IMG/VR virus record: IMGVR_UViG_2571042445_000002
Direction: 5' to 3' (one strand)
From: a virus
Lineage: Duplodnaviria > Heunggongvirae > Uroviricota > Caudoviricetes
DNA length: 64,000 bases
Positions 6,570-64,000 of the stretch are shown here, piece after piece. A program made the position numbers and the translations under genes. How positions within the stretch are numbered: the stretch's first letter is position 1; every line of letters begins with the position of its first letter. The notes beneath the pieces are model-generated. The model was not told the origin of the DNA. It was given only the letters and a program-made list of their open reading frames with translations, and ran no database searches.

Positions 6570-7475
6570 ATGAGATTAGTCGCCTTTAAAAACATATACG
6601 TCTATCGCCTTGCCCGCGAAATAAAACTGGACTCAACCACCGTTAGTGATGCCTTAAGCCAATTCACATTCACTCCATGCGCATCACAAGAAATGGCAAA
6701 AGTCGGATGGGTGCCGGTTCTGGCTGACAACCTGATCCATGAATACCACGGTTTTCTACTTCTCCAGCAACAGCGAGAAATTAAGCTCCTGCCCTCTCAT
6801 GTCATTAAGGAGGAAGTGCAGAAAAAAGTGGAAAAGCTCGAAAATGAGCAATCTCGTAAGCTGAAGAAGTCGGAAAAAAACACCCTGAAGGATGAAGTTC
6901 TCCACTCTTTGTTGCCTCGCGCATTCACTCGCAAATCATTGTCGCGAATCCTTATTGATCGCGACAACTATCTGGTCTTCGTAGAAGCTTCCAGCGCCAG
7001 AAAAGCTGAAGAAATGCTGGCGCTCTTACGTAAATCACTTGGCAGCCTGCCAGTGATTCCATTCACGCCGATAGAACCGCTCGAAATGACTATGACCGAA
7101 TGGTTCAAGTCAACATTTCCTCAAGGCTTTAAAGCAGGCGAAGAAGCCATATTGAAATCTCTGTTCGATGACGGCGGCGCAGTTCGTTGCAAGAAAGTAG
7201 ACCTACAGTCAGAGGAAATAATGACTCATATTGAAGCCGGAAAAGTTGCAACAACAGTTGCAATCAACTGGCAGGACCGCGCGACCTTCAGGTTAAACGA
7301 TGACATGAGCATCAAAGCACTGACGTTTTGCGATGATCTCTATGACCAGAACGATGACATCGACCGTGAAGATGTTGCCCAGCGATTTGATGCTGACTTC
7401 ATTCTGTTCACAAGCGAATTATCCGCGATGTTTAGCTCGCTGGTGGAGGCCATTGGCGGTGAAGCAGAGCATTAA
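6570..7475 (+). CDS. rdgC: recombination-associated protein RdgC
   Basis: N-terminus MRLVAFKNIYVYRL, internal LKKSEKNTLKDEVLHSLLPRAF and DIDREDVAQRFDADFIL, C-terminus GGEAEH closely parallel E. coli RdgC as recalled; no obvious SD. Confidence 0.8.
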   Translation: MRLVAFKNIYVYRLAREIKLDSTTVSDALSQFTFTPCASQEMAKVGWVPVLADNLIHEYHGFLLLQQQREIKLLPSHVIKEEVQKKVEKLENEQSRKLKKSEKNTLKDEVLHSLLPRAFTRKSLSRILIDRDNYLVFVEASSARKAEEMLALLRKSLGSLPVIPFTPIEPLEMTMTEWFKSTFPQGFKAGEEAILKSLFDDGGAVRCKKVDLQSEEIMTHIEAGKVATTVAINWQDRATFRLNDDMSIKALTFCDDLYDQNDDIDREDVAQRFDADFILFTSELSAMFSSLVEAIGGEAEH

Positions 7476-7491
7476 TAACCGACCGCTGGCG

Positions 7492-8139
7492 GTGAGTCTT
7501 TGTGATTATACAGGGAATATGGTTTCCCCCTGGCTGGAACACGGCATTGATGCAGTCATTGTCGATCCGCAACACCAGGAGTCCGGCAGCCAATTGATGG
7601 AGTCAGGTGCTGTACTCACACGTATCAGCGCAATTATTGACAGTGATGAGGTCTACAATTTCCTTCGGAAAAATTTGCACAGAGTTGTATTTTTAGCCGG
7701 TTTCCCTCCGTGTACTGACCTGGCTGTATCTGGCGCACGCTGGTTCGCAGATAAAGCGAAAAAAGATCCGGTTTTCCAGTTCAAAGCAATGCAGGTTGTC
7801 TGGCAGTGTTACGACATTGCAAAGATGATTGGTTGCCCGTACATGATTGAAAACCCGGTCAGCCAAATATCGACATTCTGGCGTAAACCTGATCACATAT
7901 TCCATCCTTATCACTTCACTGCATATTGCAAGGAAGACAATTACACCAAAAAAACATGCCTGTGGAGCGGACAAGGATTCATCATGCCAACTCCGCGAAT
8001 CGACGAGTCGTTAGGTGATCCAGACAACCGAATACACAAGGCACCGCCAGGACCTGAAAGAGCGAATTTTCGTAGCGCGACACCTTACGGTTTTGCAAGA
8101 GCTGTATTTGAAGCAAATAAGGAGGGAATCCGTGGCTGA
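7492..8139 (+). CDS. short C5-cytosine DNA methyltransferase-like protein (start uncertain: GTG 7492 or ATG 7519)
   Basis: Motif GFPPCTDLAVSGARW resembles C5-MTase PCQ motif IV; MIENPV resembles ENV motif VI; N-terminal SAM motif degenerate; only ~215 aa. Confidence 0.45.
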   Translation: MSLCDYTGNMVSPWLEHGIDAVIVDPQHQESGSQLMESGAVLTRISAIIDSDEVYNFLRKNLHRVVFLAGFPPCTDLAVSGARWFADKAKKDPVFQFKAMQVVWQCYDIAKMIGCPYMIENPVSQISTFWRKPDHIFHPYHFTAYCKEDNYTKKTCLWSGQGFIMPTPRIDESLGDPDNRIHKAPPGPERANFRSATPYGFARAVFEANKEGIRG

Positions 8140-9049
8140 TATTGGTGCTAAATTTATTTCTTATAGCGACAATCATCGTCCTGCGGCGGAAGCCACTATC
8201 AGCCATATGCGACGTATTCGCTCGGAGGACGAATTTGATCGCCCCGTCTTTAAGTGGGTCGGCGGCAAATTTTCTGCACTGCCCATTATCTTCGAACACC
8301 TGCCCCACGGAAAACGGTTGATAGAACCTTTCGTTGGAGGTGGCGCTGTTTTCACTAATGCCGGATTTAAAAGCAACCTGCTGAACGATATCAATAATGA
8401 CCTGATTAACTTCTATCAGACATTGCAGCGTGAAGGGCATTCTCTTATCACACTGGCATATCGTTTTTTTCAGGATTACAACTCTGCTGATGCATTTTTG
8501 AATGTTCGCAATGCATTCAACAATGGTGCTTATGATTCCCTTCACCATGCAGCGGCGTTCCTGTATCTCAATCGTCATTGTTTTAATGGCGTCACTCGCT
8601 ATAACCGTAAAGGAGAGTTCAACGTCGGATATGGAAAGCAGAAATCCCCCCACTTCCCTCTCGCGGAAATGGAGGCGTTCCTGGCTGACGATATTTCAAA
8701 GTATTCGGAATTTGTGTCCGGCGATTTTGCTGGTGTAATTGAGGCTGCAGGGAATGATGATGTGATTTTCTGCGATCCCCCCTATGAACCATTGCCCGAC
8801 ACTACCGGATTTACAAATTACTCAGGGCATAGCTTTAGGTTTGAAGATCAACAACGGCTGGTGTCACTGCTGGTGGATGCCCACAGACGCGGAGCGAAAA
8901 TTGTGATAACAAACAGTGGTGCGCCTAACATTCGCGAACTTTACGTTGGCAATGGCTTCAAGGTGTATCCTATGCCATCCCGTCGCTCTGTATCCTGTAA
9001 AGCATCAACCCGAATGATAGCTAACGACATTATAGCCACGCTCAATTAA
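8132..9049 (+). CDS. dam: DNA adenine methyltransferase (Dam family, GATC-type)
   Basis: FKWVGGK...EPFVGGGAVF (motif I) and DPPY (motif IV) in Dam order; GTG start at 8132 preceded by AAGGAGGG; alternative ATG at 8207; overlaps previous gene by 8 nt. Confidence 0.8.
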   Translation: MADIGAKFISYSDNHRPAAEATISHMRRIRSEDEFDRPVFKWVGGKFSALPIIFEHLPHGKRLIEPFVGGGAVFTNAGFKSNLLNDINNDLINFYQTLQREGHSLITLAYRFFQDYNSADAFLNVRNAFNNGAYDSLHHAAAFLYLNRHCFNGVTRYNRKGEFNVGYGKQKSPHFPLAEMEAFLADDISKYSEFVSGDFAGVIEAAGNDDVIFCDPPYEPLPDTTGFTNYSGHSFRFEDQQRLVSLLVDAHRRGAKIVITNSGAPNIRELYVGNGFKVYPMPSRRSVSCKASTRMIANDIIATLN

Positions 9050-9051
9050 GA

Positions 9052-9074
9052 AAAGCCCCATATGGGGCTTTATA
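9052..9074. terminator. hairpin AAAGCCCCA-TAT-GGGGCTTT downstream of dam
   Basis: 8-bp GC stem, short U-tract. Confidence 0.45.
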
Positions 9075-9094
9075 ACATCAAATAAACGCCATTA

Positions 9095-9180
9095 CGGTAC
9101 ACTAATAACACCATTCTGGTACTAAAAAGGCATCAAGGTAGTATCAAAATACCACATGGAACCAAAACGGTGTTATTCCG
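9095..9180. repeat. centromere-like repeats downstream of the ParA/ParG-like operon
   Basis: AACACCATTCTGGTACTAAAAAGG and inverted CCAAAACGGTGTT; near-identical copy AACACCGTTTTGGTACTAAAAGAA at 10300-10323 on the other side of the operon. Confidence 0.45.
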
Positions 9181-9183
9181 GCG

Positions 9184-9471
9184 TCATTTTGTATCCTCAG
9201 ACTCTGCAAGCATGAGGATAGCATGGCGGATCATATTCAATTTGCTGCGATTATGCTTTTTGCTTAACGCATCAAGTACCTGGTACTCGTATTCATTGAA
9301 GCCAACACGAATGGATTTAAAATCACGTGGGGCGTCCTTATCGAGCACTTTGTTGTCTTCTGGTTGCTCACCCGGCACCAAATCAGCCTTACTGGCAAAA
9401 TCCTCAATTCGGCGTTCAAGATCGGGGTCTTTTACTTCGGGGGCTTTTACCGATTTACGAGGCTTAATCAC
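9184..9471 (-). CDS. small partition protein, ParG-like (candidate centromere-binding protein)
   Basis: 95-aa ORF overlapping the parA stop by 8 nt; basic N-terminus, C-terminal helical segment; size and position typical of type Ib ParB/ParG. Confidence 0.45.
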   Translation of the reverse strand: MIKPRKSVKAPEVKDPDLERRIEDFASKADLVPGEQPEDNKVLDKDAPRDFKSIRVGFNEYEYQVLDALSKKHNRSKLNMIRHAILMLAESEDTK

Positions 9472-10105
9472 TTAATAACTCCTTAACCAACATCTGGATT
9501 TCACCTTTAGCTTTCCCGTTGTCCATCTCAACAACGCCCTTCCCTTCAGCCATGCAATCGCGGTAAACCTTACGATCACGAATGATGGTTTTCAGCAACT
9601 TCAGTTGCGGATATTCAGCCAGGTACTCTTTGGCCTCATTGGTTTCATTCACAACCGGATTGGATGGGGCCATTGTTAAGACTGCGAACGCCTTAATGCT
9701 AGGATTAGGCATCAGGTCCAAAGCCTCTTCAAACACTTCAACAAAGTGTGCCAGCGTGTCTAAATCTGGTTGAGATGGTCTAAATGGGACCAACACAATA
9801 TCTGCAGCGGTTATGCCTGTACGCATCTCTTTGCTATCGCGCCCGGCTGTATCAACAACTACAAATTCATAACGCTTATCCAGATCGAGAAGTGTTTCTC
9901 GAATATTACCAAACTTCTGGACACAATGAATTACAGGAGAAACCTCTGCCGTGTTACGGTCAGCTGCCCAGCGGGCAGCTGTTCCTTGCTTGTCTGCATC
10001 TAGTAACACTACATCCTTATTTTCGCGGGCAAGCTCCGCACAGATGTTTACGCTTGTGGTTGATTTTCCACAGCCACCTTTTTGGCTGACTACCAATATA
10101 ATCAT
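9464..10105 (-). CDS. parA: ParA-family partition ATPase (small type Ib)
   Basis: Deviant Walker A VVSQKGGCGKSTTS at N-terminus; 213 aa. Confidence 0.8.
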   Translation of the reverse strand: MIILVVSQKGGCGKSTTSVNICAELARENKDVVLLDADKQGTAARWAADRNTAEVSPVIHCVQKFGNIRETLLDLDKRYEFVVVDTAGRDSKEMRTGITAADIVLVPFRPSQPDLDTLAHFVEVFEEALDLMPNPSIKAFAVLTMAPSNPVVNETNEAKEYLAEYPQLKLLKTIIRDRKVYRDCMAEGKGVVEMDNGKAKGEIQMLVKELLSD

Positions 10106-10390
10106 ATCCGTTCCTCGGTGTTATTTTGGTATCAAACTGGTTCCAAACAGAAGCCTTATTGATGCGGTTTTGGCTCTATAGTGGAGTCACTATGCTTTGC
10201 AAAAGTATAACACTAAACACTCTAAATTTACCCTCTGTTGCATCCTGTTTAACACGAAATCAGCCTCAAAGTGGAACCAGACACAAAACAGCACCATAAC
10301 AACACCGTTTTGGTACTAAAAGAACACCAAATTAGAACCATAACAGTATAAAAAAGGCTGCAAATTGCAGCCTTTGAAGATGTAGATTTG
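10106..10390. repeat. repeat-rich region upstream of parA (candidate parS/operator)
   Basis: GGAACCAGA, TGGTTCC, AACACCGTTTTGGTACTAAAAG repeated and inverted relative to 9095-9180. Confidence 0.4.
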
Positions 10391-10756
10391 TTAATCAGGG
10401 AGTGAGTTTGCCAAATTCTGTGCAGAGCGGCTTTTCGAAACGCCAGGTTTTTTAACATCCGCTGAGGCTGAGGGGTTTCCTTCAGGGTTTTCCCGAACTT
10501 CAGGCGAAATTTCAAGAAATGAAACCAGCATTTTTCTGATCACTTCAGGGCTATTATCACCGGATAAAAGCGATGCCAACATGGGAGGTAATCTGCTATC
10601 AACCTCGCCAAGAGCGATACCTGCAAGCATCGCTGTGCGCGCCATATCATTGCGATCTCTTAATGGATGGCCCTCAAGTTTTGCATCAGCATATTGCTCA
10701 CTGGCGTTAAGACCAGGACGAAGATAAAACAATACTTTTCGACGTTCCTGAGACAT
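10391..10756 (-). CDS. parR: ParR/StbB-like partition adaptor
   Basis: 121 aa directly downstream of the ParM-like gene; N-terminal RRKVLFYLRPGLNASEQ resembles R1 ParR ribbon-helix-helix region as recalled. Confidence 0.5.
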   Translation of the reverse strand: MSQERRKVLFYLRPGLNASEQYADAKLEGHPLRDRNDMARTAMLAGIALGEVDSRLPPMLASLLSGDNSPEVIRKMLVSFLEISPEVRENPEGNPSASADVKKPGVSKSRSAQNLANSLPD

Positions 10757-10766
10757 GGCAACCTCA

Positions 10767-11726
10767 TCAACCGATAGATTTTAGACCATAGACAAGAGCA
10801 AGTTGTGGATCATCAGCAACGAAAAACCTATCGTCACGAATGTTTACCTGCTCACGGATAGCATCAGCAACAAGCGGCGCGCCGCCACCAATGACCATAA
10901 CATGCGTGTATCCTTTGAAATCACTGATCACATCCAGTACGCGTGTACGGAGTCGTTCTATGCTTGACGAAATGGCTTTCTTAACATCATCAATAGCAGA
11001 CGGATCGTTAATATTGTCGGTCAAATAATCCTCATCATCACGATTAATGATTAATTGATCGACATTATAATTAGAGGTTTCGGTATTCGCTTTTGCAAGT
11101 GCCTGTCTGACCTCTTTAGTTACCAGCGAAACGCCGAGATTAGAATCGCCAAATACGCGAGAAACGGCGGTCATTTGCCCGGCGACCATCGACACATCCA
11201 GAGTAGTCCCACCAAGATCAACAATAAGCACAGAATGCGCTGGCACAAGGCTGTCGCACAGACCGATCCCTGCGGGTATTGACTCCGGGCGCACAGTCAC
11301 TTTTTTGATAGTAAAAACCTGACCTTTGTTAAGGGTGACTGGGCGCATCAGGCTGGCCTTTTTCCGCTCAATATTTTTCATGTTGTATTGTGCGTCGTCG
11401 TCATAAAACTCTGCCAGTGGCAACGTGACAACTATTTCCACTTCTTGAGGCTCAATGCCACTTGTAAGCAGGGCATGATGAACAGCAAGCACATTAAGCG
11501 GGCTGTATTGCCATTCAACGTTATTCGTCGGCAGCACATCCGGCGAGATCAAGTCATATGAATATTTTTCGTCATCAATGATGTAGTTAAACGGCTTTCC
11601 TGCGCCAAATGTGGCGGACCATCCACGTTTAAAACTGTTCGGACAGATATGGGTTCGAGTTTCCCCGTCCTGTTCCCACAGCATTTTGATATTGGTAGAA
11701 CCATCGTCGATAAAAATGCGCATCAT
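10767..11726 (-). CDS. parM: ParM/StbA actin-like partition ATPase
   Basis: MMRIFIDDGSTNIK... and VIGGGAPLVADAI motifs parallel R1 ParM over full length; start MM at 11726 with GGAG 7 nt upstream. Confidence 0.8.
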   Translation of the reverse strand: MMRIFIDDGSTNIKMLWEQDGETRTHICPNSFKRGWSATFGAGKPFNYIIDDEKYSYDLISPDVLPTNNVEWQYSPLNVLAVHHALLTSGIEPQEVEIVVTLPLAEFYDDDAQYNMKNIERKKASLMRPVTLNKGQVFTIKKVTVRPESIPAGIGLCDSLVPAHSVLIVDLGGTTLDVSMVAGQMTAVSRVFGDSNLGVSLVTKEVRQALAKANTETSNYNVDQLIINRDDEDYLTDNINDPSAIDDVKKAISSSIERLRTRVLDVISDFKGYTHVMVIGGGAPLVADAIREQVNIRDDRFFVADDPQLALVYGLKSIG

Positions 11727-22098: not shown

Positions 22099-22330
22099 AA
22101 TGTTGACTATAGGCGAAATGGCTTACAACTAATGTTGACTGTACTCGATCCCGATCACAAAACATTGACTACACGCGACAAGAAATGAGAAAAGATTGAC
22201 TATAAGCGACAAATACTCAATGAAATAGCTGGTTTATCCATTGATCATGTGAAAAAGCTAATAACTAAATCCGCCAGCGTCAATGTTTGTCGCGTATAGT
22301 CAACGCTTAGAATCGCACACAGTCAATGTT
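22099..22330. repeat. incA-like iteron cluster downstream of repA (iterons in both orientations)
   Basis: TTGACTATAGGCG 22103, TTGACTGTACTCG 22135, TTGACTACACGCG 22166, TTGACTATAAGCG 22196; inverted CGCGTATAGTCAACG 22291, CGCACACAGTCAATG 22315. Confidence 0.55.
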
Positions 22331-23213
22331 ATGGATTTCGTTTATGGATCTGGAAACCTATTTTCCGACCATTCTTTATCTCTGAAAATTTAAGATATTC
22401 AACAGCTTCTAAGTCTTTCATGGCTTTACGAATCACACTGTTCTGAACGCTAACCGAGGACTTGAGGTTCAATCTGGCGCGAAGGCGCTCAATACTCACT
22501 GGCGCAGGGTTTGAAGGTAACGCTTCGAAAAACGTATAAAGCACCTTGGCTGTCTCTTTCCTGCCAAGTTTATCGAGCATTTTGAGCTTCAATATTCGCT
22601 TATAGTCAACGTAGTACAACTCAGACAACTGCTTCTGCGGTTGGATTCTTATAATGTCATTTTCAGTATCAAGTTCACTAAATGCCAATAAATTCATCTG
22701 GATATAACGAACATGTTCTTTGCTGGTGGGCAAGTTGAACTTCAGCAACGTCTGCTGAATACGCGTTAGAGAGTCGCCAATGCTCTTGCGAAAAGCCTTG
22801 GACAGCCGCTTCCTTGGATAACCGCAACGATCCACAAATTCAGAGAATGTTAGGGTGATCACACCATCATTGTCTGGTTTATAGTCAAACAATGCAGATG
22901 TAATGCCTATCCAAACCTTAAAATCAGTATCCATATCCAGGCGTGGCCCATGAATCTCAATACCCTGATACCCTTCCTGCTCTACAATCTTCAGGCTGGA
23001 CAGTTCTTCTGTCGCATCAGTTGAGTTAGTTAAACCGGCGTTCTTGCGACGTAAAGCAACACTGGTAGATTTCAATGTGGGAACAAACACCCCAAGCCGC
23101 AACAAAGCTATCGGCTGAATAGTGCTATTATTGTTAGGCTTTAAGCTGTGGATTTCTCCGGTATTCCCTGATATTTCCTCAACGTTCAGAAAGCCTTTTT
23201 TGTCATCTACCAT
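22329..23213 (-). CDS. repA: plasmid replication initiator RepA (P1 RepA-like)
   Basis: TIQPIALLRLGVFVP, HGPRLDMDTDFKVWIGI and C-terminal RLRARLNLKSSVSVQNSVIRKAMKDLEAVEYL parallel P1 RepA as recalled; flanked by iterons. Confidence 0.8.
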   Translation of the reverse strand: MVDDKKGFLNVEEISGNTGEIHSLKPNNNSTIQPIALLRLGVFVPTLKSTSVALRRKNAGLTNSTDATEELSSLKIVEQEGYQGIEIHGPRLDMDTDFKVWIGITSALFDYKPDNDGVITLTFSEFVDRCGYPRKRLSKAFRKSIGDSLTRIQQTLLKFNLPTSKEHVRYIQMNLLAFSELDTENDIIRIQPQKQLSELYYVDYKRILKLKMLDKLGRKETAKVLYTFFEALPSNPAPVSIERLRARLNLKSSVSVQNSVIRKAMKDLEAVEYLKFSEIKNGRKIGFQIHKRNP

Positions 23214-23261: not shown

Positions 23262-23505
23262 TTATCCACAGCCGTCTGAGGGCTGAGAGAATTATCGCAT
23301 ACAGTCAATGTTTATATCGCATATAGTCAACATTAAATCGCACATAGTCAACATTAAATCGCACATAGTCAACATTAAATCGCACATAGTCAATGTTGAT
23401 CGCCATTTAGGCCAGTGATGGCGCGGCTCGCAGCGATCCGGGATCTTCTTTGGATCTTACTGGTTCTCTTTGGGATCTATTTATTGGATCTACCCTGTGG
23501 ATAAA
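23262..23505. other. oriR-like plasmid origin: DnaA boxes, five 21-bp direct iterons, cluster of six GATC sites
   Basis: TTATCCACA 23262-23270; iterons TCGCAYAYAGTCAAYRTT at 23295, 23317, 23338, 23359, 23380; GATC at 23398, 23435, 23442, 23452, 23473, 23487; TGTGGATAA 23496-23504. Confidence 0.6.
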
Positions 23506-36736: not shown

Positions 36737-37343
36737 GTCTAATTATGTTCTTCTTAATTATGATGAGTTAAACGAAAAGGGGCTGGCAAAACTCGTCAAA
36801 GAAATCGGTAAAGGAGGCTACAAGATAGCGAGGGTGATCCCCGCCAGTAATGGCAGGAAGAAAGACGGGATCATGACGCGCACGTTTACCCTTATCGGAA
36901 TCGATGAGCAGACGATGGACGTTCAGGTTAATGATACTGGTGATATTTCTGGTGTAAAACTGAACGGAAAAATTGTTCCTTTCAAGCCAGTTAAAACGCT
37001 GATGGCTTTAGGGCAATCACTGGCTGCTTTATTTAATAAAGGCGCATCATCATTTCAGAAATCATTGGCGCGTAAGTTAGCTCGTGCGGCGAAAGATATT
37101 GATGATGGGAATAAGAAAATAAAAGGCGTTAAGTCCAATGCGCAGAAACTAGCAGAGGCAAAGGAATCTCGCGATGCGATCCGCGAGGATATTGAAAGGG
37201 CCAAAGAAAAATTAAATCAGGTGCAAGGTAATTCAGACCGCGCAACAAGAGAAACTGAAATCATTAGAACCGAGATGGCGCAGGAACTGGCGAAAACTCG
37301 CGTATTGAAAGAAGAAATAGCGCGCCTGGAGGAAGATGCATGA
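36726..37343 (+). CDS. hypothetical protein with C-terminal coiled-coil
   Basis: ATG 36726 with AAGGAG SD; 205 aa. Confidence 0.4.
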   Translation: MSNKSNYVLLNYDELNEKGLAKLVKEIGKGGYKIARVIPASNGRKKDGIMTRTFTLIGIDEQTMDVQVNDTGDISGVKLNGKIVPFKPVKTLMALGQSLAALFNKGASSFQKSLARKLARAAKDIDDGNKKIKGVKSNAQKLAEAKESRDAIREDIERAKEKLNQVQGNSDRATRETEIIRTEMAQELAKTRVLKEEIARLEEDA

Positions 37344-43821: not shown

Positions 43822-44820
43822 ATGCAATCACTGAATACCGTTACGGATCGCTTCTCCCTGGTAGAGAAAATCCGCAAACACACACCTCAGAACAATCGCA
43901 ATTACGTTATCCAGTCGGTACGAGACACATTCAACTCGCCAGAAACAAAAGAGCGTATCGCACTGGGTGAGATGTATGGTTATTACGGTCATGGTCGCCG
44001 GGCGATGCACTATAACAAAACGAAAAGCCTGGACTTGCCGGAAGTCTCTGTTGTGATGGTAGATGGGAAGCCTGTTGTATTGGAGAACGTGCCGTCAAAC
44101 AGGACTATCGACATTTCAATTGACGACAACGGCATTGTTACCCATACACAGGAAATACTGGATACGGACACCGGACGTATTGTTCAGGGTATGATTAATT
44201 CTGGCGCAGGTGGTTGGTCATGGGCTACATCTGGTCCAGATTACTCTGTATCCCTGGTAAAGTCTTTTCACGGTTTTGATTACGTAACTGTGCCTAACTA
44301 TATCAGCCTCGACAAGAAAAGCCTGATGCTTGAATCAGCAGAAGAACGCGACGCGGCGATTCATGCGGCACTTATCGAACAAGGTTTTACCGATAATGCT
44401 GCTACGGATCTGGTTCACCACTTTTCAGCAATGAAGAGTCAGCAAGCCATATTCGAATCAGCACAACGTGAAGTTCTGGAGTCGGAACTGATACATCTTG
44501 AAGTGGAAAATATGCAGCTTCGCGACAAACTACGCGACCAGGCCGCGATGATGGAAAGCCAGGGGGAGAACGCGAAGAAATGCCGCCGTATTTTGCGTGA
44601 TGCTATCCAGGAAATGCCTGTTTTTATCAGCGCAGAACAGCGCCGGGCGCTCTGCCGTATGCAGTCAGAGGATGATGCACGCATTGTCGCAGCGATGCTT
44701 GAATCCCTGGGGGCTAATGCCACTTATGGTCTGCCAATATCAGCCAATAAACAACAAGAAATACCGGTGAAAGAGAACAAGACGGTGACTCCGCTGATCT
44801 TTGTGTCTAAGAGGATGTGA
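43822..44820 (+). CDS. hypothetical protein, possible prohead protease/scaffold
   Basis: 332 aa; C-terminal coiled-coil segment; context only. Confidence 0.35.
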   Translation: MQSLNTVTDRFSLVEKIRKHTPQNNRNYVIQSVRDTFNSPETKERIALGEMYGYYGHGRRAMHYNKTKSLDLPEVSVVMVDGKPVVLENVPSNRTIDISIDDNGIVTHTQEILDTDTGRIVQGMINSGAGGWSWATSGPDYSVSLVKSFHGFDYVTVPNYISLDKKSLMLESAEERDAAIHAALIEQGFTDNAATDLVHHFSAMKSQQAIFESAQREVLESELIHLEVENMQLRDKLRDQAAMMESQGENAKKCRRILRDAIQEMPVFISAEQRRALCRMQSEDDARIVAAMLESLGANATYGLPISANKQQEIPVKENKTVTPLIFVSKRM

Positions 44821-60238: not shown

Positions 60239-60313
60239 GATGGTGTAGCTCAGTGGTAGAGCAGTTGGCTGTTAACCAACTGGTCGGTGGTTCGAATCCA
60301 CTCACCATCGCCA
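60239..60313 (+). tRNA. tRNA-Asn (anticodon GTT)
   Basis: Cloverleaf parsed manually: acceptor GATGGTG/CACCATC, D-arm GCTC-AGTGGTA-GAGC, anticodon loop CTGTTAA, T-loop TTCGAAT, 3' CCA encoded. Confidence 0.8.
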
Positions 60314-60315
60314 AT

Positions 60316-60391
60316 GCCGGTTTAGCTCAGTTGGTAGAGCGCCTGCCTTGTAAGCAGGATGTCAGCGGTTCGAGTCCGTTAACCGGCACCA
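60316..60391 (+). tRNA. tRNA-Thr (anticodon TGT)
   Basis: Acceptor GCCGGTT/AACCGGC, anticodon stem CCTGC/GCAGG with loop CTTGTAA, T-loop TTCGAGT, CCA encoded; 2 nt after tRNA-Asn. Confidence 0.8.
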
Positions 60392-60392
60392 A

Positions 60393-60479
60393 CACAACAG
60401 GTAAGGGTATTTTGCGACGTCGGAGATCGCCGAGCTTGGCAGAGGGTTCGAATCCCTACGAAGTACCCTTACCGTTGTG
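60393..60479 (+). other. tRNA-like element: canonical T-loop (GGTTCGAATCC) and D-arm-like hairpin enclosed by a 16-17 bp inverted repeat; lacks anticodon arm (pseudo-tRNA or structured RNA)
   Basis: IR CACAACAGGTAAGGGTA 60393-60409 / TACCCTTACCGTTGTG 60464-60479; cannot be folded into a full cloverleaf. Confidence 0.3.
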
Positions 60480-60579
60480 ATGAATGCACAGGCTGATGTG
60501 CCGCAACTACAGTAGTGCGCGCTTTGCGGGGCTTGCTACAACCCTGTGTCGGAGTTCAGCACCGACCATCACAATCACT

Positions 60580-60666
60580 GGAGAGTAGGGAGCATGGTGC
60601 TCAAGCGGTCTTGAAAACCGTCCCATTGCGCAAGCGATGATGGTTCGATTCCATTACTCTCCGCCA
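60580..60666 (+). tRNA. atypical tRNA-like gene, possibly tRNA-Ser(TGA) with long variable arm and unusual D-arm
   Basis: Acceptor GGAGAGT/ACTCTCC + G + CCA; anticodon arm GCGGT-CTTGAAA-ACCGT; T-arm GATGG-TTCGATT-CCATT; D-arm atypical (5-bp stem, 3-nt loop). Confidence 0.35.
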
Positions 60667-60922
60667 GCGCAACGTTAAGAGTATTTGGCTAATTAAGCGA
60701 ATGCCGGAAGCAGAACCGGATCACCAAATGCTCTTACCATTGCGGTGAATGCGGCTAAGCGCACGCGGAACAGTTAAAACAGTAAAGGTGGTCTTTTTAC
60801 TGGCGTAACGAGAATCCATAAGTGATCCGGCGTTAATTGTTAACTGGTTAACGTCACCGGGAGGCACCCGGCACCGCAACCTAACAGCAATGGCGTTTTG
60901 TCTTAAAAGGTGGCTGCAAGTG

Positions 60923-61051
60923 ATGGATTTTTGGGCGTTTGCCGATAAAAACCCGGAGTGGACATTATTGTTTCTGCTGGTGGTTGCATACGGGGTAGAG
61001 CAAGCGGCAAAAGCCTTACGCGGTTCTGGCAAAAAGCGTAAGCGTAATTAA
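60923..61051 (+). CDS. 42-aa small membrane protein candidate (MDFWAFADKNPEWTLLFLLVVAYGVEQAAKALRGSGKKRKRN)
   Basis: Single hydrophobic helix plus basic C-terminus; SD AAGGTGG; located between tRNA-like genes; below ORF-track size cutoff. Confidence 0.3.
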   Translation: MDFWAFADKNPEWTLLFLLVVAYGVEQAAKALRGSGKKRKRN

Positions 61052-61060
61052 CAGTAATCT

Positions 61061-61136
61061 GGCCCTTTAGCTCAGTGGTTAGAGCGGGCGACTCATAATC
61101 GCACGGTCACCGGTTCAAGTCCGGTAGGGGCCACCA
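61061..61136 (+). tRNA. tRNA with CAT anticodon, ileX-like (tRNA-Ile2/lysidine type or elongator Met)
   Basis: GGCCCTTTAGCTCAGTGGTTAGAGCGGGCGACTCATAATCGC...GGTTCAAGTCCGGTAGGGGCCACCA closely resembles E. coli ileX as recalled. Confidence 0.8.
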
Positions 61137-61588
61137 CATTTGGTTGTAACACGGCGTATGGCACATGCGTCGTTAGCGGTCTGGTGTAGCTGTTAGGTAC
61201 CTTTTACTAACACTGCATGGGCACACCAGGTAGCCGGAATGTGCAAGCCCCGTTCATAGCGTCGGACTGCGGATTCACCATCCTGGCGATTCGGTGTGAC
61301 AGCCGGAAGAGCACGGCGTACAACAGGAAAAGGCGTTTAATTAGCGTGAGCGCCGTTTCCGTTGTGGTAATTGCGGCTATGCGCTCGTGACGAAGCCATT
61401 TTCATTCACTACGTTCTGATAAGTGTCGTCGCCGGGCGTGGCTAACCTGGCAGGTGGAGGCACCACCGCCACAACTCCTTTCAATTCATCATATAGCCGC
61501 TCAGGCTGTAACCCTTAATTAATACGAAGTTACGACGTCACTACCGGTTCAGCCGGGGGATAGTCGCGCGTGTAAAAAAGGAGACGTT

Positions 61589-62164
61589 ATGTTAACGGCG
61601 AACGATAACGCGTATTCAGAAGATGATCTCGTTTTGAGTGACTTTATAGGGCGACGAGAATGCTGGACGCAAAAGCGCGAGGAGCTTTATGCAGCGTTAG
61701 TTCGTAAAGGCGTCAACATCGAAACCGCACAGAACGGTGATATGACAGTGGTAAGTGTTGGACTGCACGGCGTAAGTGTGTCAGCAATCAATCATGAGCC
61801 GTACATTGCGTTATCCGAGTCGATGGTAAGGTTAGTTAAGTTCCTGAAGTACACAGAAGCGAATAACGTGATCATCGCCAAAAAGAACATCCCGTTCTCA
61901 TCGGCCTTTTACTGGATGATGAAGGGGCTTGATGCCCGGCGAACATCATGGCCTAAAGGGAGCTATATATCGATGCTCCGTGGCAGTGTTGGTAGCAAAG
62001 AAAAGCTCGTCGAATTCCTGCCGGAAGAGGCATTCGATATTGTTGAAGGTTGTGATGTGATGGTTATGCCTCGCCTGGTAATGATGAATGGGGATTTACA
62101 GGCGCAGACAGACTGGTTTGCAACTGGAGTTGATATTATCGCTACTGACTGGGAGGTTTTTTGA
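61589..62164 (+). CDS. protein with C-terminal DUF2829/Tad2-like domain (candidate anti-defence signal sponge)
   Basis: C-terminal half SAFYWMMKGLDARRTSWPKGSYI ... NGDLQAQTDWFATGVDIIATDWEVF fits the recalled DUF2829 pattern (ARRxxW ... DWEV); start may be internal. Confidence 0.4.
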   Translation: MLTANDNAYSEDDLVLSDFIGRRECWTQKREELYAALVRKGVNIETAQNGDMTVVSVGLHGVSVSAINHEPYIALSESMVRLVKFLKYTEANNVIIAKKNIPFSSAFYWMMKGLDARRTSWPKGSYISMLRGSVGSKEKLVEFLPEEAFDIVEGCDVMVMPRLVMMNGDLQAQTDWFATGVDIIATDWEVF

Positions 62165-62544
62165 TGTACGAGGCTACTAAATTACGCACTGAGGATGCGA
62201 TGCACATTGGTTGGGACATCATCACCTGCAAGATAACATCATGCAAGGCTACACGCACAGACGCCGGACACAAGAGCACAATATCAGGTTATGTCGTGAT
62301 GTCAGTCAGGAGTGTGCGCATACGCTTCAGATGGAAAGCCTGCCAGGTTACATCATCAATGCCGCTTACCGTCGAGCAGGATTATTTATGCTTACCCGAA
62401 ATAGACGGAGCGTTGCTGGTGGGCAATAGTGGTCGAAAAGCCGATTTTGAAGCCAGTCTGAAGATGGCGCAGGCGGTGATCAACAAACATAAAGGGAAGT
62501 GGGAGGCAAAAGTTAAGCATGTTGTTCGTTTATCCCGCTGGTAG
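62161..62544 (+). CDS. hypothetical protein
   Basis: 127-aa ORF overlapping previous stop. Confidence 0.35.
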   Translation: MMYEATKLRTEDAMHIGWDIITCKITSCKATRTDAGHKSTISGYVVMSVRSVRIRFRWKACQVTSSMPLTVEQDYLCLPEIDGALLVGNSGRKADFEASLKMAQAVINKHKGKWEAKVKHVVRLSRW

Positions 62545-62577
62545 TGTTAGCAAATTGATATTAATTTTCTAATACAT
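62543..62577. promoter_or_regulatory. operator-like motif AGTGTTAGCAAATTGATATTAATTTTCTAATACAT
   Basis: Inverted half-sites GTTAGCAAA / TTTTCTAAT; TTTTCTAATACAT resembles the P1 C1 operator core (CTCTAATAAAT) as recalled. Confidence 0.5.
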
Positions 62578-62651
62578 CATGTTTTTGACAGTCTTCTCAG
62601 TATTAACAAGCTGATTATCATCCCCTCGGTCTTTTTCTATCCGGGGGATAA

Positions 62652-63044
62652 ATGGAGCAAATCAGTAGCGCCGAAATAGCGGATATCATGATCAGGGCTA
62701 ACTGCTATCTGACGGTCACCGAAATCACCAGCCGTGCAAAAGCACAATATCCTCACCTTCATGTGTCGCGCGTAAACGTAAATAACATCATACGTTTTTT
62801 TGTTCGTTCCAGTCGTGCCATTTGCGAAATAGACGACCGCGTATACCCCCGGAAATATTGGTTACATGGCCTGAATGGATACCAGTTCAAGGTGCGCGGG
62901 CGCACTCCTGAATTCGGTCGGCTGTTGGTGAAAAACACCAACCGAAAGATAGAAGCTCAATTACGAAAGGAGCAGCGTCAGTTGGTGGCGATGACTAACC
63001 AGCTATGGAACGCCGCTGTGAAAAAACGTGAGGCTTCCCTATGA
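62652..63044 (+). CDS. hypothetical protein, possible late-promoter activator (Lpa-like position upstream of pacA)
   Basis: 130 aa; directly upstream of and overlapping the PacA-like gene, as lpa is in P1 (recalled); functional call by synteny only. Confidence 0.35.
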   Translation: MEQISSAEIADIMIRANCYLTVTEITSRAKAQYPHLHVSRVNVNNIIRFFVRSSRAICEIDDRVYPRKYWLHGLNGYQFKVRGRTPEFGRLLVKNTNRKIEAQLRKEQRQLVAMTNQLWNAAVKKREASL

Positions 63045-64000
63045 CGTTAATTAACTGGGAAGCGCATCGAGCTAAGTTCCTGGAGTTAAGAGAAGAAACC
63101 GGGATCACCATAAAAGAATATTGCGAGCAGCATGACCTCAGCTTTAACACCGCCAGAAAGCATCTCAATATGAAAAAAAATGAGGTTAAGGCGAAAGCTA
63201 AGGCTACCGGGAAAAGTACAAAACAGCGCGCAAAAAGCAGTGCCACCGGCTCAAAAAAAGAGCAAAAAAAGGCTAATAAAAGCACAGAATTTACAAAAAC
63301 TGACAAATCGTTGGCTGGTGGACGGTTCCGCGCCATGCCGCAAAAACAAAATGCGGATCACAAAGAAAAGCCAAGTAATAACAACAAGATACACAAGGAT
63401 GTGAAGGGATCATTTTGTGATGAAATGGGAGAAATGATCCCTAAAAGCAGCGATAAAGCCCAACGAAACAAGGGATCATTGCAAATGATCCCTGATTCAT
63501 CAGCTCAAAGCACCACTTTGCCTGCCACCAACGTCGCCCGTGAGATGATGAAGAACGGCGCGACTGAACATTTACGACTTGCGATACAGATGGCGCAGGA
63601 ACGAGCAATTCAGTATCAGGCTATCGTTGACCAGGAAGCGGAGCGACTACAGGAAGAGATTGACGCTCTCGGTGATACACAGCCAGAGGGGATGCACCCA
63701 GGGCAGCGTCTTCTCGGACTGATCAGCGATGCGGCCTACTACATGAATGACTTTATCACCAGGCTGGCAGCCATCTATCAGAACGAGCAGAAGCTACGCC
63801 AGGGGGATGAAAAACTTGCGCAGGGCGCGCGTCAGCAGGCATTCAGGGAGGCTGAGGCCAGAGAAAAACTGGCGATTGCCCGCCTACAAGCCGAGCAGCG
63901 TGGCAAGGAGATTGAGTATCGCATTGGCGCTGACGCACGCGCCGCCAGGGTTATCGCCGCCGCTATACGTATGCGTGAGCGCGAGGAGCTGGATGATATA
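63041..64000 (+). CDS. pacA: PacA-like terminase small subunit / pac-recognition protein, 3' end outside window
   Basis: Open frame from ATG 63041 to window end (not in ORF track because unterminated); N-terminus MTLINWEAHRAKFLELREETGITIKEYCEQHDLSFNTARKHL parallels P1 PacA N-terminus as recalled. Confidence 0.5.
   Translation, partial: MTLINWEAHRAKFLELREETGITIKEYCEQHDLSFNTARKHLNMKKNEVKAKAKATGKSTKQRAKSSATGSKKEQKKANKSTEFTKTDKSLAGGRFRAMPQKQNADHKEKPSNNNKIHKDVKGSFCDEMGEMIPKSSDKAQRNKGSLQMIPDSSAQSTTLPATNVAREMMKNGATEHLRLAIQMAQERAIQYQAIVDQEAERLQEEIDALGDTQPEGMHPGQRLLGLISDAAYYMNDFITRLAAIYQNEQKLRQGDEKLAQGARQQAFREAEAREKLAIARLQAEQRGKEIEYRIGADARAARVIAAAIRMREREELDDI
63406..63491. other. pac-like site: four TGATCCC/GGGATCA elements (GATC-containing) in alternating orientation inside the pacA 5' region
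   Basis: GGGATCA 63406-63412, TGATCCC 63434-63440, GGGATCA 63472-63478, TGATCCC 63485-63491. Confidence 0.45.

Follow-up and report, generated by a model that had tools for sequence, protein, structure and literature searches.

How does a phage-plasmid of the D6 type mark the place on its genome where packaging begins? The question is raised by the 3' end of the virus record IMGVR_UViG_2571042445_000002 (Caudoviricetes), a stretch of 64,000 nucleotides (nt) that we analyzed as a whole and refer to as the window. Its last open reading frame (ORF) resembles pacA, the small-terminase gene that contains the packaging (pac) site in phage P1, and carries a cluster of short repeats, each with a GATC, the sequence of a Dam site. 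An earlier note on this DNA had proposed the cluster as a candidate pac site. Our analysis supports this: the cluster at 63354-63493 is probably the pac site, or its core, of a D6-like phage-plasmid and would work like that of P1. The identity of the gene, the anatomy of the repeats, their conservation at the DNA level, the position of a family-wide GATC excess and the presence of a dam gene are established here.

What is the gene that carries the cluster? Because the window stops inside pacA, which is cut off at its 3' end, pacB is known only from an E. coli plasmid, NZ_CP085065.1 (94 kb, circular, non-mobilizable), that is 99.8% identical to the window over 61000-64000. There, the counterpart of the ORF has 454 codons, carries the annotation "DNA pacase A subunit" and is followed 3' by genes for a 502-amino-acid (aa) protein matching large-terminase PHROGs, a c1-like repressor and a tyrosine recombinase; in the extracted locus, pacA spans 8042-9406 and pacB 9406-10914. 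The 454-aa protein matches the PHROG terminase family phrog_1711 (E 3e-167), PacA of phage D6 is 74% identical to that of the window (76% at the DNA level), and P1 PacA aligns with it collinearly from end to end (21% identity, E 9e-8). The D6 gene order, lpa-pacA-pacB-c1-dre, is the order seen here. The match to phrog_1711, the homology to D6 and P1 PacA and the gene order therefore identify the ORF as pacA of an E. coli phage-plasmid that is D6-like and belongs to the P1 group. The earlier note was thus right to call the ORF PacA-like, and its proviso that an extended sequence might reveal something other than a terminase subunit is answered by the full-length plasmid copy, which belongs to a terminase family. 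More general searches were less informative: PacA matched no Pfam or NCBIfam model and nothing in a PDB sequence search, a scan of contigs from one genome per species with a single PacA protein as query returned no relatives, and megablast and tblastn against a phage collection returned D6 as the sole match, P1 being too distant for those search modes.

The repeats themselves had been described as four TGATCCC/GGGATCA elements of alternating orientation within 86 bp. A motif search finds exactly these heptamers in this alternation, GGGATCA at 63406-63412 and 63472-63478 and TGATCCC at 63435-63441 and 63486-63492; only the end coordinate had been placed one base short, so that the span is 87 bp. 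The repeats are also longer than was then stated. A repeat finder extends the heptamers to 11-mers, two copies of AAGGGATCATT 66 nt apart and two of AAATGATCCCT 51 nt apart, which make two perfect dyads with spacers of 16 and 3 nt, and two further elements, at 63354-63361 and 63101-63107, had been overlooked (see the table). The 10-mer AATGATCCCT and its complement occur at only these four places in the window. Among 200 dinucleotide-preserving shuffles, the largest 10-mer family within 100 bp had two members in 199 cases and three in one, but never four. When the window is extended by the other 30 kb that the near-identical plasmid has, the cluster is the only site with at least three TGATCC/GGATCA hexamers within 120 bp in the whole replicon of about 94 kb. 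Far from pacA, at 36835-36873, the heptamers also form an isolated inverted pair (TGATCCC and GGGATCA, separated by 25 nt), probably by chance. GATC as such is neither rare nor enriched in the window (242 observed, 247 expected from base composition), and two other places hold at least four GATCs in 100 bp: a plasmid origin (23398-23490) and 44796-44898. The latter, with four GATCs in about 100 bp, lies just downstream of the ORF at 43822-44820 and is adjoined by a short inverted repeat (acacagtgtgt / acactgt).

Features of the window discussed in the text (nt counted within pacA where so marked; clade, the 28 distinct sequences of the D6/window clade)
Feature	Position	Strand	Evidence or remark
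Dam-family N6-adenine DNA methyltransferase gene	8015..9049	+	TIGR00571 dam, 231 bits against a cut-off of 115; PF02086, E 2e-53
lpa (late promoter activating protein)	62652..63044	+	Pfam PF25716 BPP1_LPA, E 2.5e-50; named lpa in D6
pacA (small terminase / pacase A subunit), first 320 of 454 codons	63041..64000	+	leaves the window incomplete
N-terminal three-helix (HTH-like) putative DNA-binding domain, aa 1-57	63041..63211	+	AlphaFold, HTH Pfam matches, invariant NTAR
Outlying GGGATCA in the HTH-coding part (Gly-Ile-Thr)	63101..63107	-	conserved in the clade; role uncertain
Poorly conserved PacA linker, predicted disordered, aa about 59-170	63215..63550	+	pLDDT <50 for most of aa 59-170
Candidate pac site, 140 bp with five GATC-containing elements of the TGATCC type	63354..63493	.	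pacA nt 314-453, codons 105-151
Element 0, cGGATCAc (gTGATCCg on the - strand), pacA nt 314-321	63354..63361	-	weaker; GATC in 28/28 clade sequences
Element 1, AAGGGATCATT (AATGATCCCTT on the - strand)	63404..63414	-	GATC in 27/28 clade sequences
Element 2, AAATGATCCCT	63432..63442	+	GATC in 27/28 clade sequences
Element 3, AAGGGATCATT	63470..63480	-	GATC in 28/28 clade sequences
Element 4, AAATGATCCCT	63483..63493	+	10-bp dyad with element 3, 3-nt spacer

Within the protein, the cluster falls in a permissive place. A single-sequence AlphaFold model of PacA predicts N-terminal helices at aa 6-20, 24-30 and 35-57 with a predicted local distance difference test score (pLDDT) of about 87-93; this part gives helix-turn-helix (HTH) matches in Pfam over aa 7-49, HTH_23 among them and all of them sub-threshold, and contains N36/T37/A38/R39, which are invariant across all PacA clades. 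The putative recognition helix reads NTARKHL in the window and NTARRYL in P1. C-terminal to the disordered stretch of aa 59-170, the model shows long helices. With the model as query, Foldseek against the PDB returned coiled-coil noise only (all E > 0.6). In the model, the candidate DNA elements thus sit where the protein is predicted to be least constrained and where overlapping DNA signals would be cheapest.

Has the DNA been conserved there? PacA genes were gathered from PLSDB plasmids and 73 IMG/VR loci; those of the D6/window clade amount to 28 distinct sequences from three lineages, whose mutual identity in gene nt 130-480 is 61-64%. The GATCs at pacA nt 316, 368, 396, 434 and 447 are kept in 28, 27, 27, 28 and 28 of these sequences, respectively, in a linker of which 39% of the columns are invariant. 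Among the longest invariant linker runs are GGATCA (element 0), AAATGA(TC) and, the longest, AATGATCCC (element 4), while AAATGATCCC at element 2 is invariant in six aligned lineages. In a permutation test, four random linker tetramers were as conserved as the GATCs with P = 4e-4, a statistic that ignores kinship. Third-codon positions inside the five GATCs are invariant in 7/7 cases, compared with 38% of third positions over the linker. As a positive control, P1 relatives about 60% identical in this region retain 6/7 of the experimentally defined P1 hexamers. Outside the cluster, GGGATCAC (pacA nt 61-68), which surrounds the element at 63101, is invariant in all 28 sequences, and other clades encode the same GIT peptide there without a GATC. 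A further stretch at 63288-63306 (pacA nt 248-266), with AATTTACA and TGACAA, is likewise invariant in the clade inside the otherwise variable linker; the cause may be the conserved F-T..D peptide encoded there or a DNA signal of another kind, for instance a site for an accessory protein.

The pattern extends beyond the clade. Every PacA clade, including that of P1, shows a 3-7-fold excess of GATC in gene nt 140-480 over the rest of the locus, and together with the DNA-level conservation of the GATCs this excess at the same position in the gene supports the pac proposal. In gene nt, P1 has its left GATCs at 195, 202, 214 and 229 and its right ones at 325, 337 and 348; Pantoea plasmids have six to seven on the left, 12 nt apart and encoded by Asp-His repeats, and 363 and 379 on the right; Citrobacter plasmids have 175 and 187, then 327 and 354; E. 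hormaechei has 157, 169 and 181, then a right cluster at 380-471; and the D6/window clade has none on the left and 316, 368, 396, 434 and 447 on the right. In the E. hormaechei plasmid p60214CZ_1, the left cluster (nt 157-181) consists of ctGATCAg and two GGGGATCATT, 12 nt apart, and the right one (nt 380-471) of five TGATCC-type elements; having both, this plasmid is intermediate between the P1-like bipartite and the D6-like single-cluster layouts. The type of hexamer, in turn, follows the protein. Genes coding for NTARKHL have TGATCC/GGATCA in 110/154 elements and TGATCA in 2/154, whereas those coding for NTARREL and NTARRYL together have TGATCA in 230/300 and TGATCC in 5/300. That the hexamer tracks the variant of the putative recognition helix suggests that the two have co-evolved.

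But could the repeats be explained without a binding site? One possibility is that they are the by-product of a repeated peptide (K-G-S-F/L ... M-I-P, twice) that PacA needs, the DNA having no role. In the window, elements 1 and 3 do encode Gly-Ser and elements 2 and 4 Met-Ile-Pro, and MIP is conserved across the whole D6/Enterobacter superclade. However, Gly is replaced by Arg at element 1 in D6 (AGA TCA, Arg-Ser, against GGA TCA, Gly-Ser, in the window) and at element 3 in the Shigella and E. fergusonii lineages (AGA TCA, Arg-Ser), with the GATC surviving each time, and in the sister clade of Enterobacter hormaechei (53% protein identity) the equivalents are read in all three frames (GGA TCA, GAT CCG, ATG ATC CCC and GGG ATC AAG) as GS, DP, MIP and GI. 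Ser, Ile and Gly/Arg at the elements always use codons that preserve GATC, in a region predicted to be disordered, and in other clades the clusters at the same place are encoded by different peptides, such as DH repeats. The frame changes and the Gly/Arg swaps that retain GATC led us to discard the peptide explanation, which we regard as very improbable. The dyads might instead serve as nucleic-acid hairpins, either as mRNA structure that tunes the translation or stability of pacA or as an antisense terminator. Folded as single-stranded DNA, 63395-63500 does form two perfect hairpins (-18.2 kcal/mol, z = -3.8), and the second dyad with its T-rich tail scores as terminator-like on the - strand. 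Yet one-sided changes break the stems in D6 and in the Shigella/E. fergusonii lineages, where pairing persists only in the self-complementary GATC core and at a few bases beside it, and terminator-like matches are no commoner than in shuffles (3 vs 2.2). As these lineages show no compensatory change on the partner arm, hairpins were discarded too and seem to us hardly credible. Gly/Arg swaps, frame changes and uncompensated stems therefore argue, at the level of sequence evolution, that selection acts on GATC-centered DNA elements and not on a peptide motif or a hairpin.

If the DNA is what is selected, does it have to serve packaging? The cluster could be a Dam/SeqA-responsive element that controls an internal or antisense promoter, or that times pacAB expression by sequestration. 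GATC clusters have such roles at oriC and P1 oriR, a similar cluster lies at the plasmid's own origin (23398-23490), and the overlap of lpa and pacA, with no P1-type late promoter between them, leaves room for other ways of regulating pacA. We nevertheless consider this improbable, as no sigma-70-like promoter is predicted on either strand of 63300-63600, the position of the cluster matches that of the mapped pac site in the homologous P1 gene, and the elements, at about 10 bp, reach well past GATC and change with the variant of the PacA helix. A different doubt concerns completeness: the cluster might be no more than the right half, still preserved, of a pac that was bipartite in an ancestor, in which case recognition would need sequence beyond 63354-63493, be it the GGGATCA at 63101 or a site outside pacA. 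The sister clade of E. hormaechei has both left (nt 157-181) and right (nt 380-471) clusters, the D6/window clade shows a 4-codon deletion where the left one would be expected, and the octamer around the 63101 element never varies in the clade. Against this, the replicon contains no further TGATCC/GGATCA cluster, and a single element 250-390 bp away would be an unusual partner; we attach only a small probability to such a remnant.

Taken as a pac site, the cluster would act as follows. The putative N-terminal HTH domains of PacA would bind the AATGATCC(C) elements, that is, the two dyads and an upstream half-site; PacA would oligomerize through its long C-terminal helices and recruit PacB, the large terminase with the nuclease; and PacB would cut nearby, after which headful packaging would run toward pacB, c1 and the recombinase locus. 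Because every element carries a GATC, recognition and cleavage should depend on Dam methylation, with fully methylated sites cleavable and under-methylated ones protected, as in P1. The methylation would be supplied by the phage's own Dam. The Dam gene that the earlier note had placed in the window is indeed recovered by TIGR00571 (231 bits) and PF02086; its product has the DPPY catalytic motif and scores 220 with the E. coli Dam equivalog model, below the cut-off of 441. By these matches, it is a Dam-family methyltransferase with putative GATC specificity. That PacA binds here, that the site is cut, which way packaging runs and that methylation governs cutting are all inferred by analogy with P1.

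Several observations weigh against a P1-like pac at this place. Clustering of GATC is not significant by itself, since at least four GATCs within 83 bp arise about 0.7 times per shuffled window, and we dropped GATC density alone as evidence. The D6/window clade has no left hexamer cluster, while all other clades have one 90-200 bp upstream, and shows a 4-codon gap where E. hormaechei carries it. With just 4-5 GATCs, it has the weakest enrichment of the family (Poisson P 0.006-0.03 per locus). A scan of pacA nt 130-520 in the sequences from the window, D6, Shigella and Enterobacter gave no match, with up to one mismatch allowed, to the consensus for integration host factor (IHF), WATCAANNNNTTR; the scan recovers the annotated P1 site, although a consensus scan is a weak test. 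The correlation between helix and hexamer rests on a single evolutionary contrast, and the conservation tests ignore phylogeny, so that their effective basis is three lineages and the Enterobacter outgroup. Since the MIP tripeptide that elements 2 and 4 encode is conserved too, they could owe some of their conservation to the protein. Finally, the accessible literature yielded no mapping of packaging ends for this or any other D6-like phage. In a bolder version of the pac reading, D6-type phage-plasmids would use a compact pac of two palindromic dyads of the asymmetric 10-bp AATGATCCCT, co-evolved with the changed recognition helix NTARKHL and independent of a second cluster or of IHF-induced bending, in which PacA dimers would bind the dyads or a cruciform would be extruded for PacB to cut. 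We consider this version rather doubtful.

As for the surroundings of pacA, the stop codon of lpa overlaps the pacA start as ATGA (63041-63044), which leaves no intergenic room for a P1-type LPpac late promoter, and a search near pacA for the box of that promoter (GTGACTT..TANNNT) was negative, at the level of chance. Two genes upstream of lpa, at 61589-62164, lies a 191-aa ORF for which relatives carry the annotation MW1434 family type I toxin-antitoxin toxin and which is also conserved in D6 (orf6) and the Enterobacter plasmid; upstream of the lpa-pacA block, at 60239-61136, are four tRNA genes (Asn-GTT, Thr-TGT, Ser-TGA, Met-CAT). At the other end of the window, in 7333-9049, a 268-aa ORF without a Pfam match overlaps the start of the methyltransferase gene at 8015-9049. 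P1 has a fusion of the Dam-like domain with another methylase domain, whereas here the two look like separate ORFs. The plasmid origin at 23300-23500 resembles P1 oriR and lies beside a repA-like gene (22329-23213, - strand). It consists of four to five iterons of about 20 bp (aaatcgcacatagtcaacatt) followed by the GATC cluster at 23398-23490, six GATCs in about 100 bp that are mostly GGATCT-type repeats, with a DnaA-box-like tgtggataa near 23497.

What would a pac site of this kind mean? For generalized transduction, P1 is the standard phage, and phagemid and PAC-vector technology is driven by its pac. Phage-plasmids of the D6 type occur commonly in E. coli, Salmonella and Shigella, and more than 130 PLSDB plasmids carry this type of PacA. 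If our reading is correct, the TGATCC cluster marks where D6-like packaging, and hence transduction, begins, and it would provide a second, orthogonal pac/pacase pair for packaging vectors. NTARKHL/TGATCC and NTARRYL/TGATCA would then form a natural pair with which to test by what means a small terminase recognizes Dam-methylated DNA. Were the compact-dyad version to hold, the P1 terminase family would include a solution that differs in mechanism, and a natural specificity-swap pair would be at hand for dissecting the reading of methylated DNA by PacA. A methylation-controlled pac inside pacA is textbook P1 biology; what we describe would carry this mechanism over to a sister lineage, in an altered architecture that is unannotated in the D6 records, and overturns nothing.

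Finally, we would like to place the cluster next to known systems, of which P1 is the closest. That P1 pac cleavage needs methylated GATCs, and that pacase on under-methylated pac blocks cutting, was reportedly shown by Sternberg and Coulby in 1990. The requirement, and the block to further cutting, are paraphrased in a paper that summarizes the seven TGATCA/G Dam-site hexamers of P1 and reports that their synonymous recoding cuts P1 DNA packaging about 9-fold (PMC10028697). According to the P1 record and sequence, the mapped cleavage sites inside pacA have four TGATCA hexamers on one side and three TGATCA/G hexamers on the other; the hexamers span gene nt 194-353, and the primary cleavage (gene nt 276-285) and the IHF site lie between the clusters. 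The P1 facts that the earlier note had given, a pac inside pacA built of Dam-site TGATCA/G hexamers, hold. Like P1 pac, the candidate is located in the homologous gene, shortly after the part that codes for the HTH-like domain, consists of several short repeats that each have a Dam site, is of similar size (140 bp for five elements vs 161 bp, or 161-162 bp inside pacA, for P1 pac), and is accompanied by the order pacA-pacB-c1-recombinase and a phage-borne Dam-type methylase. Where P1 has TGATCA/G, the hexamer here is TGATCC, which is asymmetric, occurs in both orientations and is part of a repeat of about 10 bp (AATGATCCCT), and in place of 4+3 clusters flanking a center of about 90 bp there is one compact cluster of 4-5 alternating elements with two dyads, although a 2+2 reading with a 34-bp center is possible. 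PacA itself is only 21% identical to that of P1 and differs in the putative recognition helix. These differences in layout (TGATCC, a single cluster, no IHF consensus) had gone unremarked in the earlier note.

D6 is nearer still. Its pacA (AY753669 / MF356679) belongs to the same clade, has the same length and carries GATCs at the identical nt 63, 316, 368, 396, 434 and 447. Its reverse-oriented elements are degenerate (AGGAGATCATT, GAGGGATCTTC), and its dyads are imperfect for that reason, whereas the lineage of the window has perfect 10-11-bp repeats. Neither D6 GenBank record annotates a pac site, and a full-text literature search, which did not reach the main D6 papers, found no description of a D6-type pac. 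Among other headful-packaging phages, P22 (gene 3), Sf6 and SPP1 (pacL/pacC/pacR) also have pac within or next to the small-terminase gene, so that here, as there, the recognition site of the small terminase would lie in or beside its own gene. The small terminases of P22, Sf6 and SPP1 are unrelated or only distantly related in sequence to PacA, and we know of no methylation control of their pac sites, which to our knowledge are not built from Dam sites. With oriC and P1 oriR, the cluster shares the grouping of Dam sites within about 100 bp; unlike such GATC-rich origins, it has no iterons, DnaA box or neighboring rep gene, and its elements are flanked as TGATCC, whereas those at the replicon's own origin read GGATCT.

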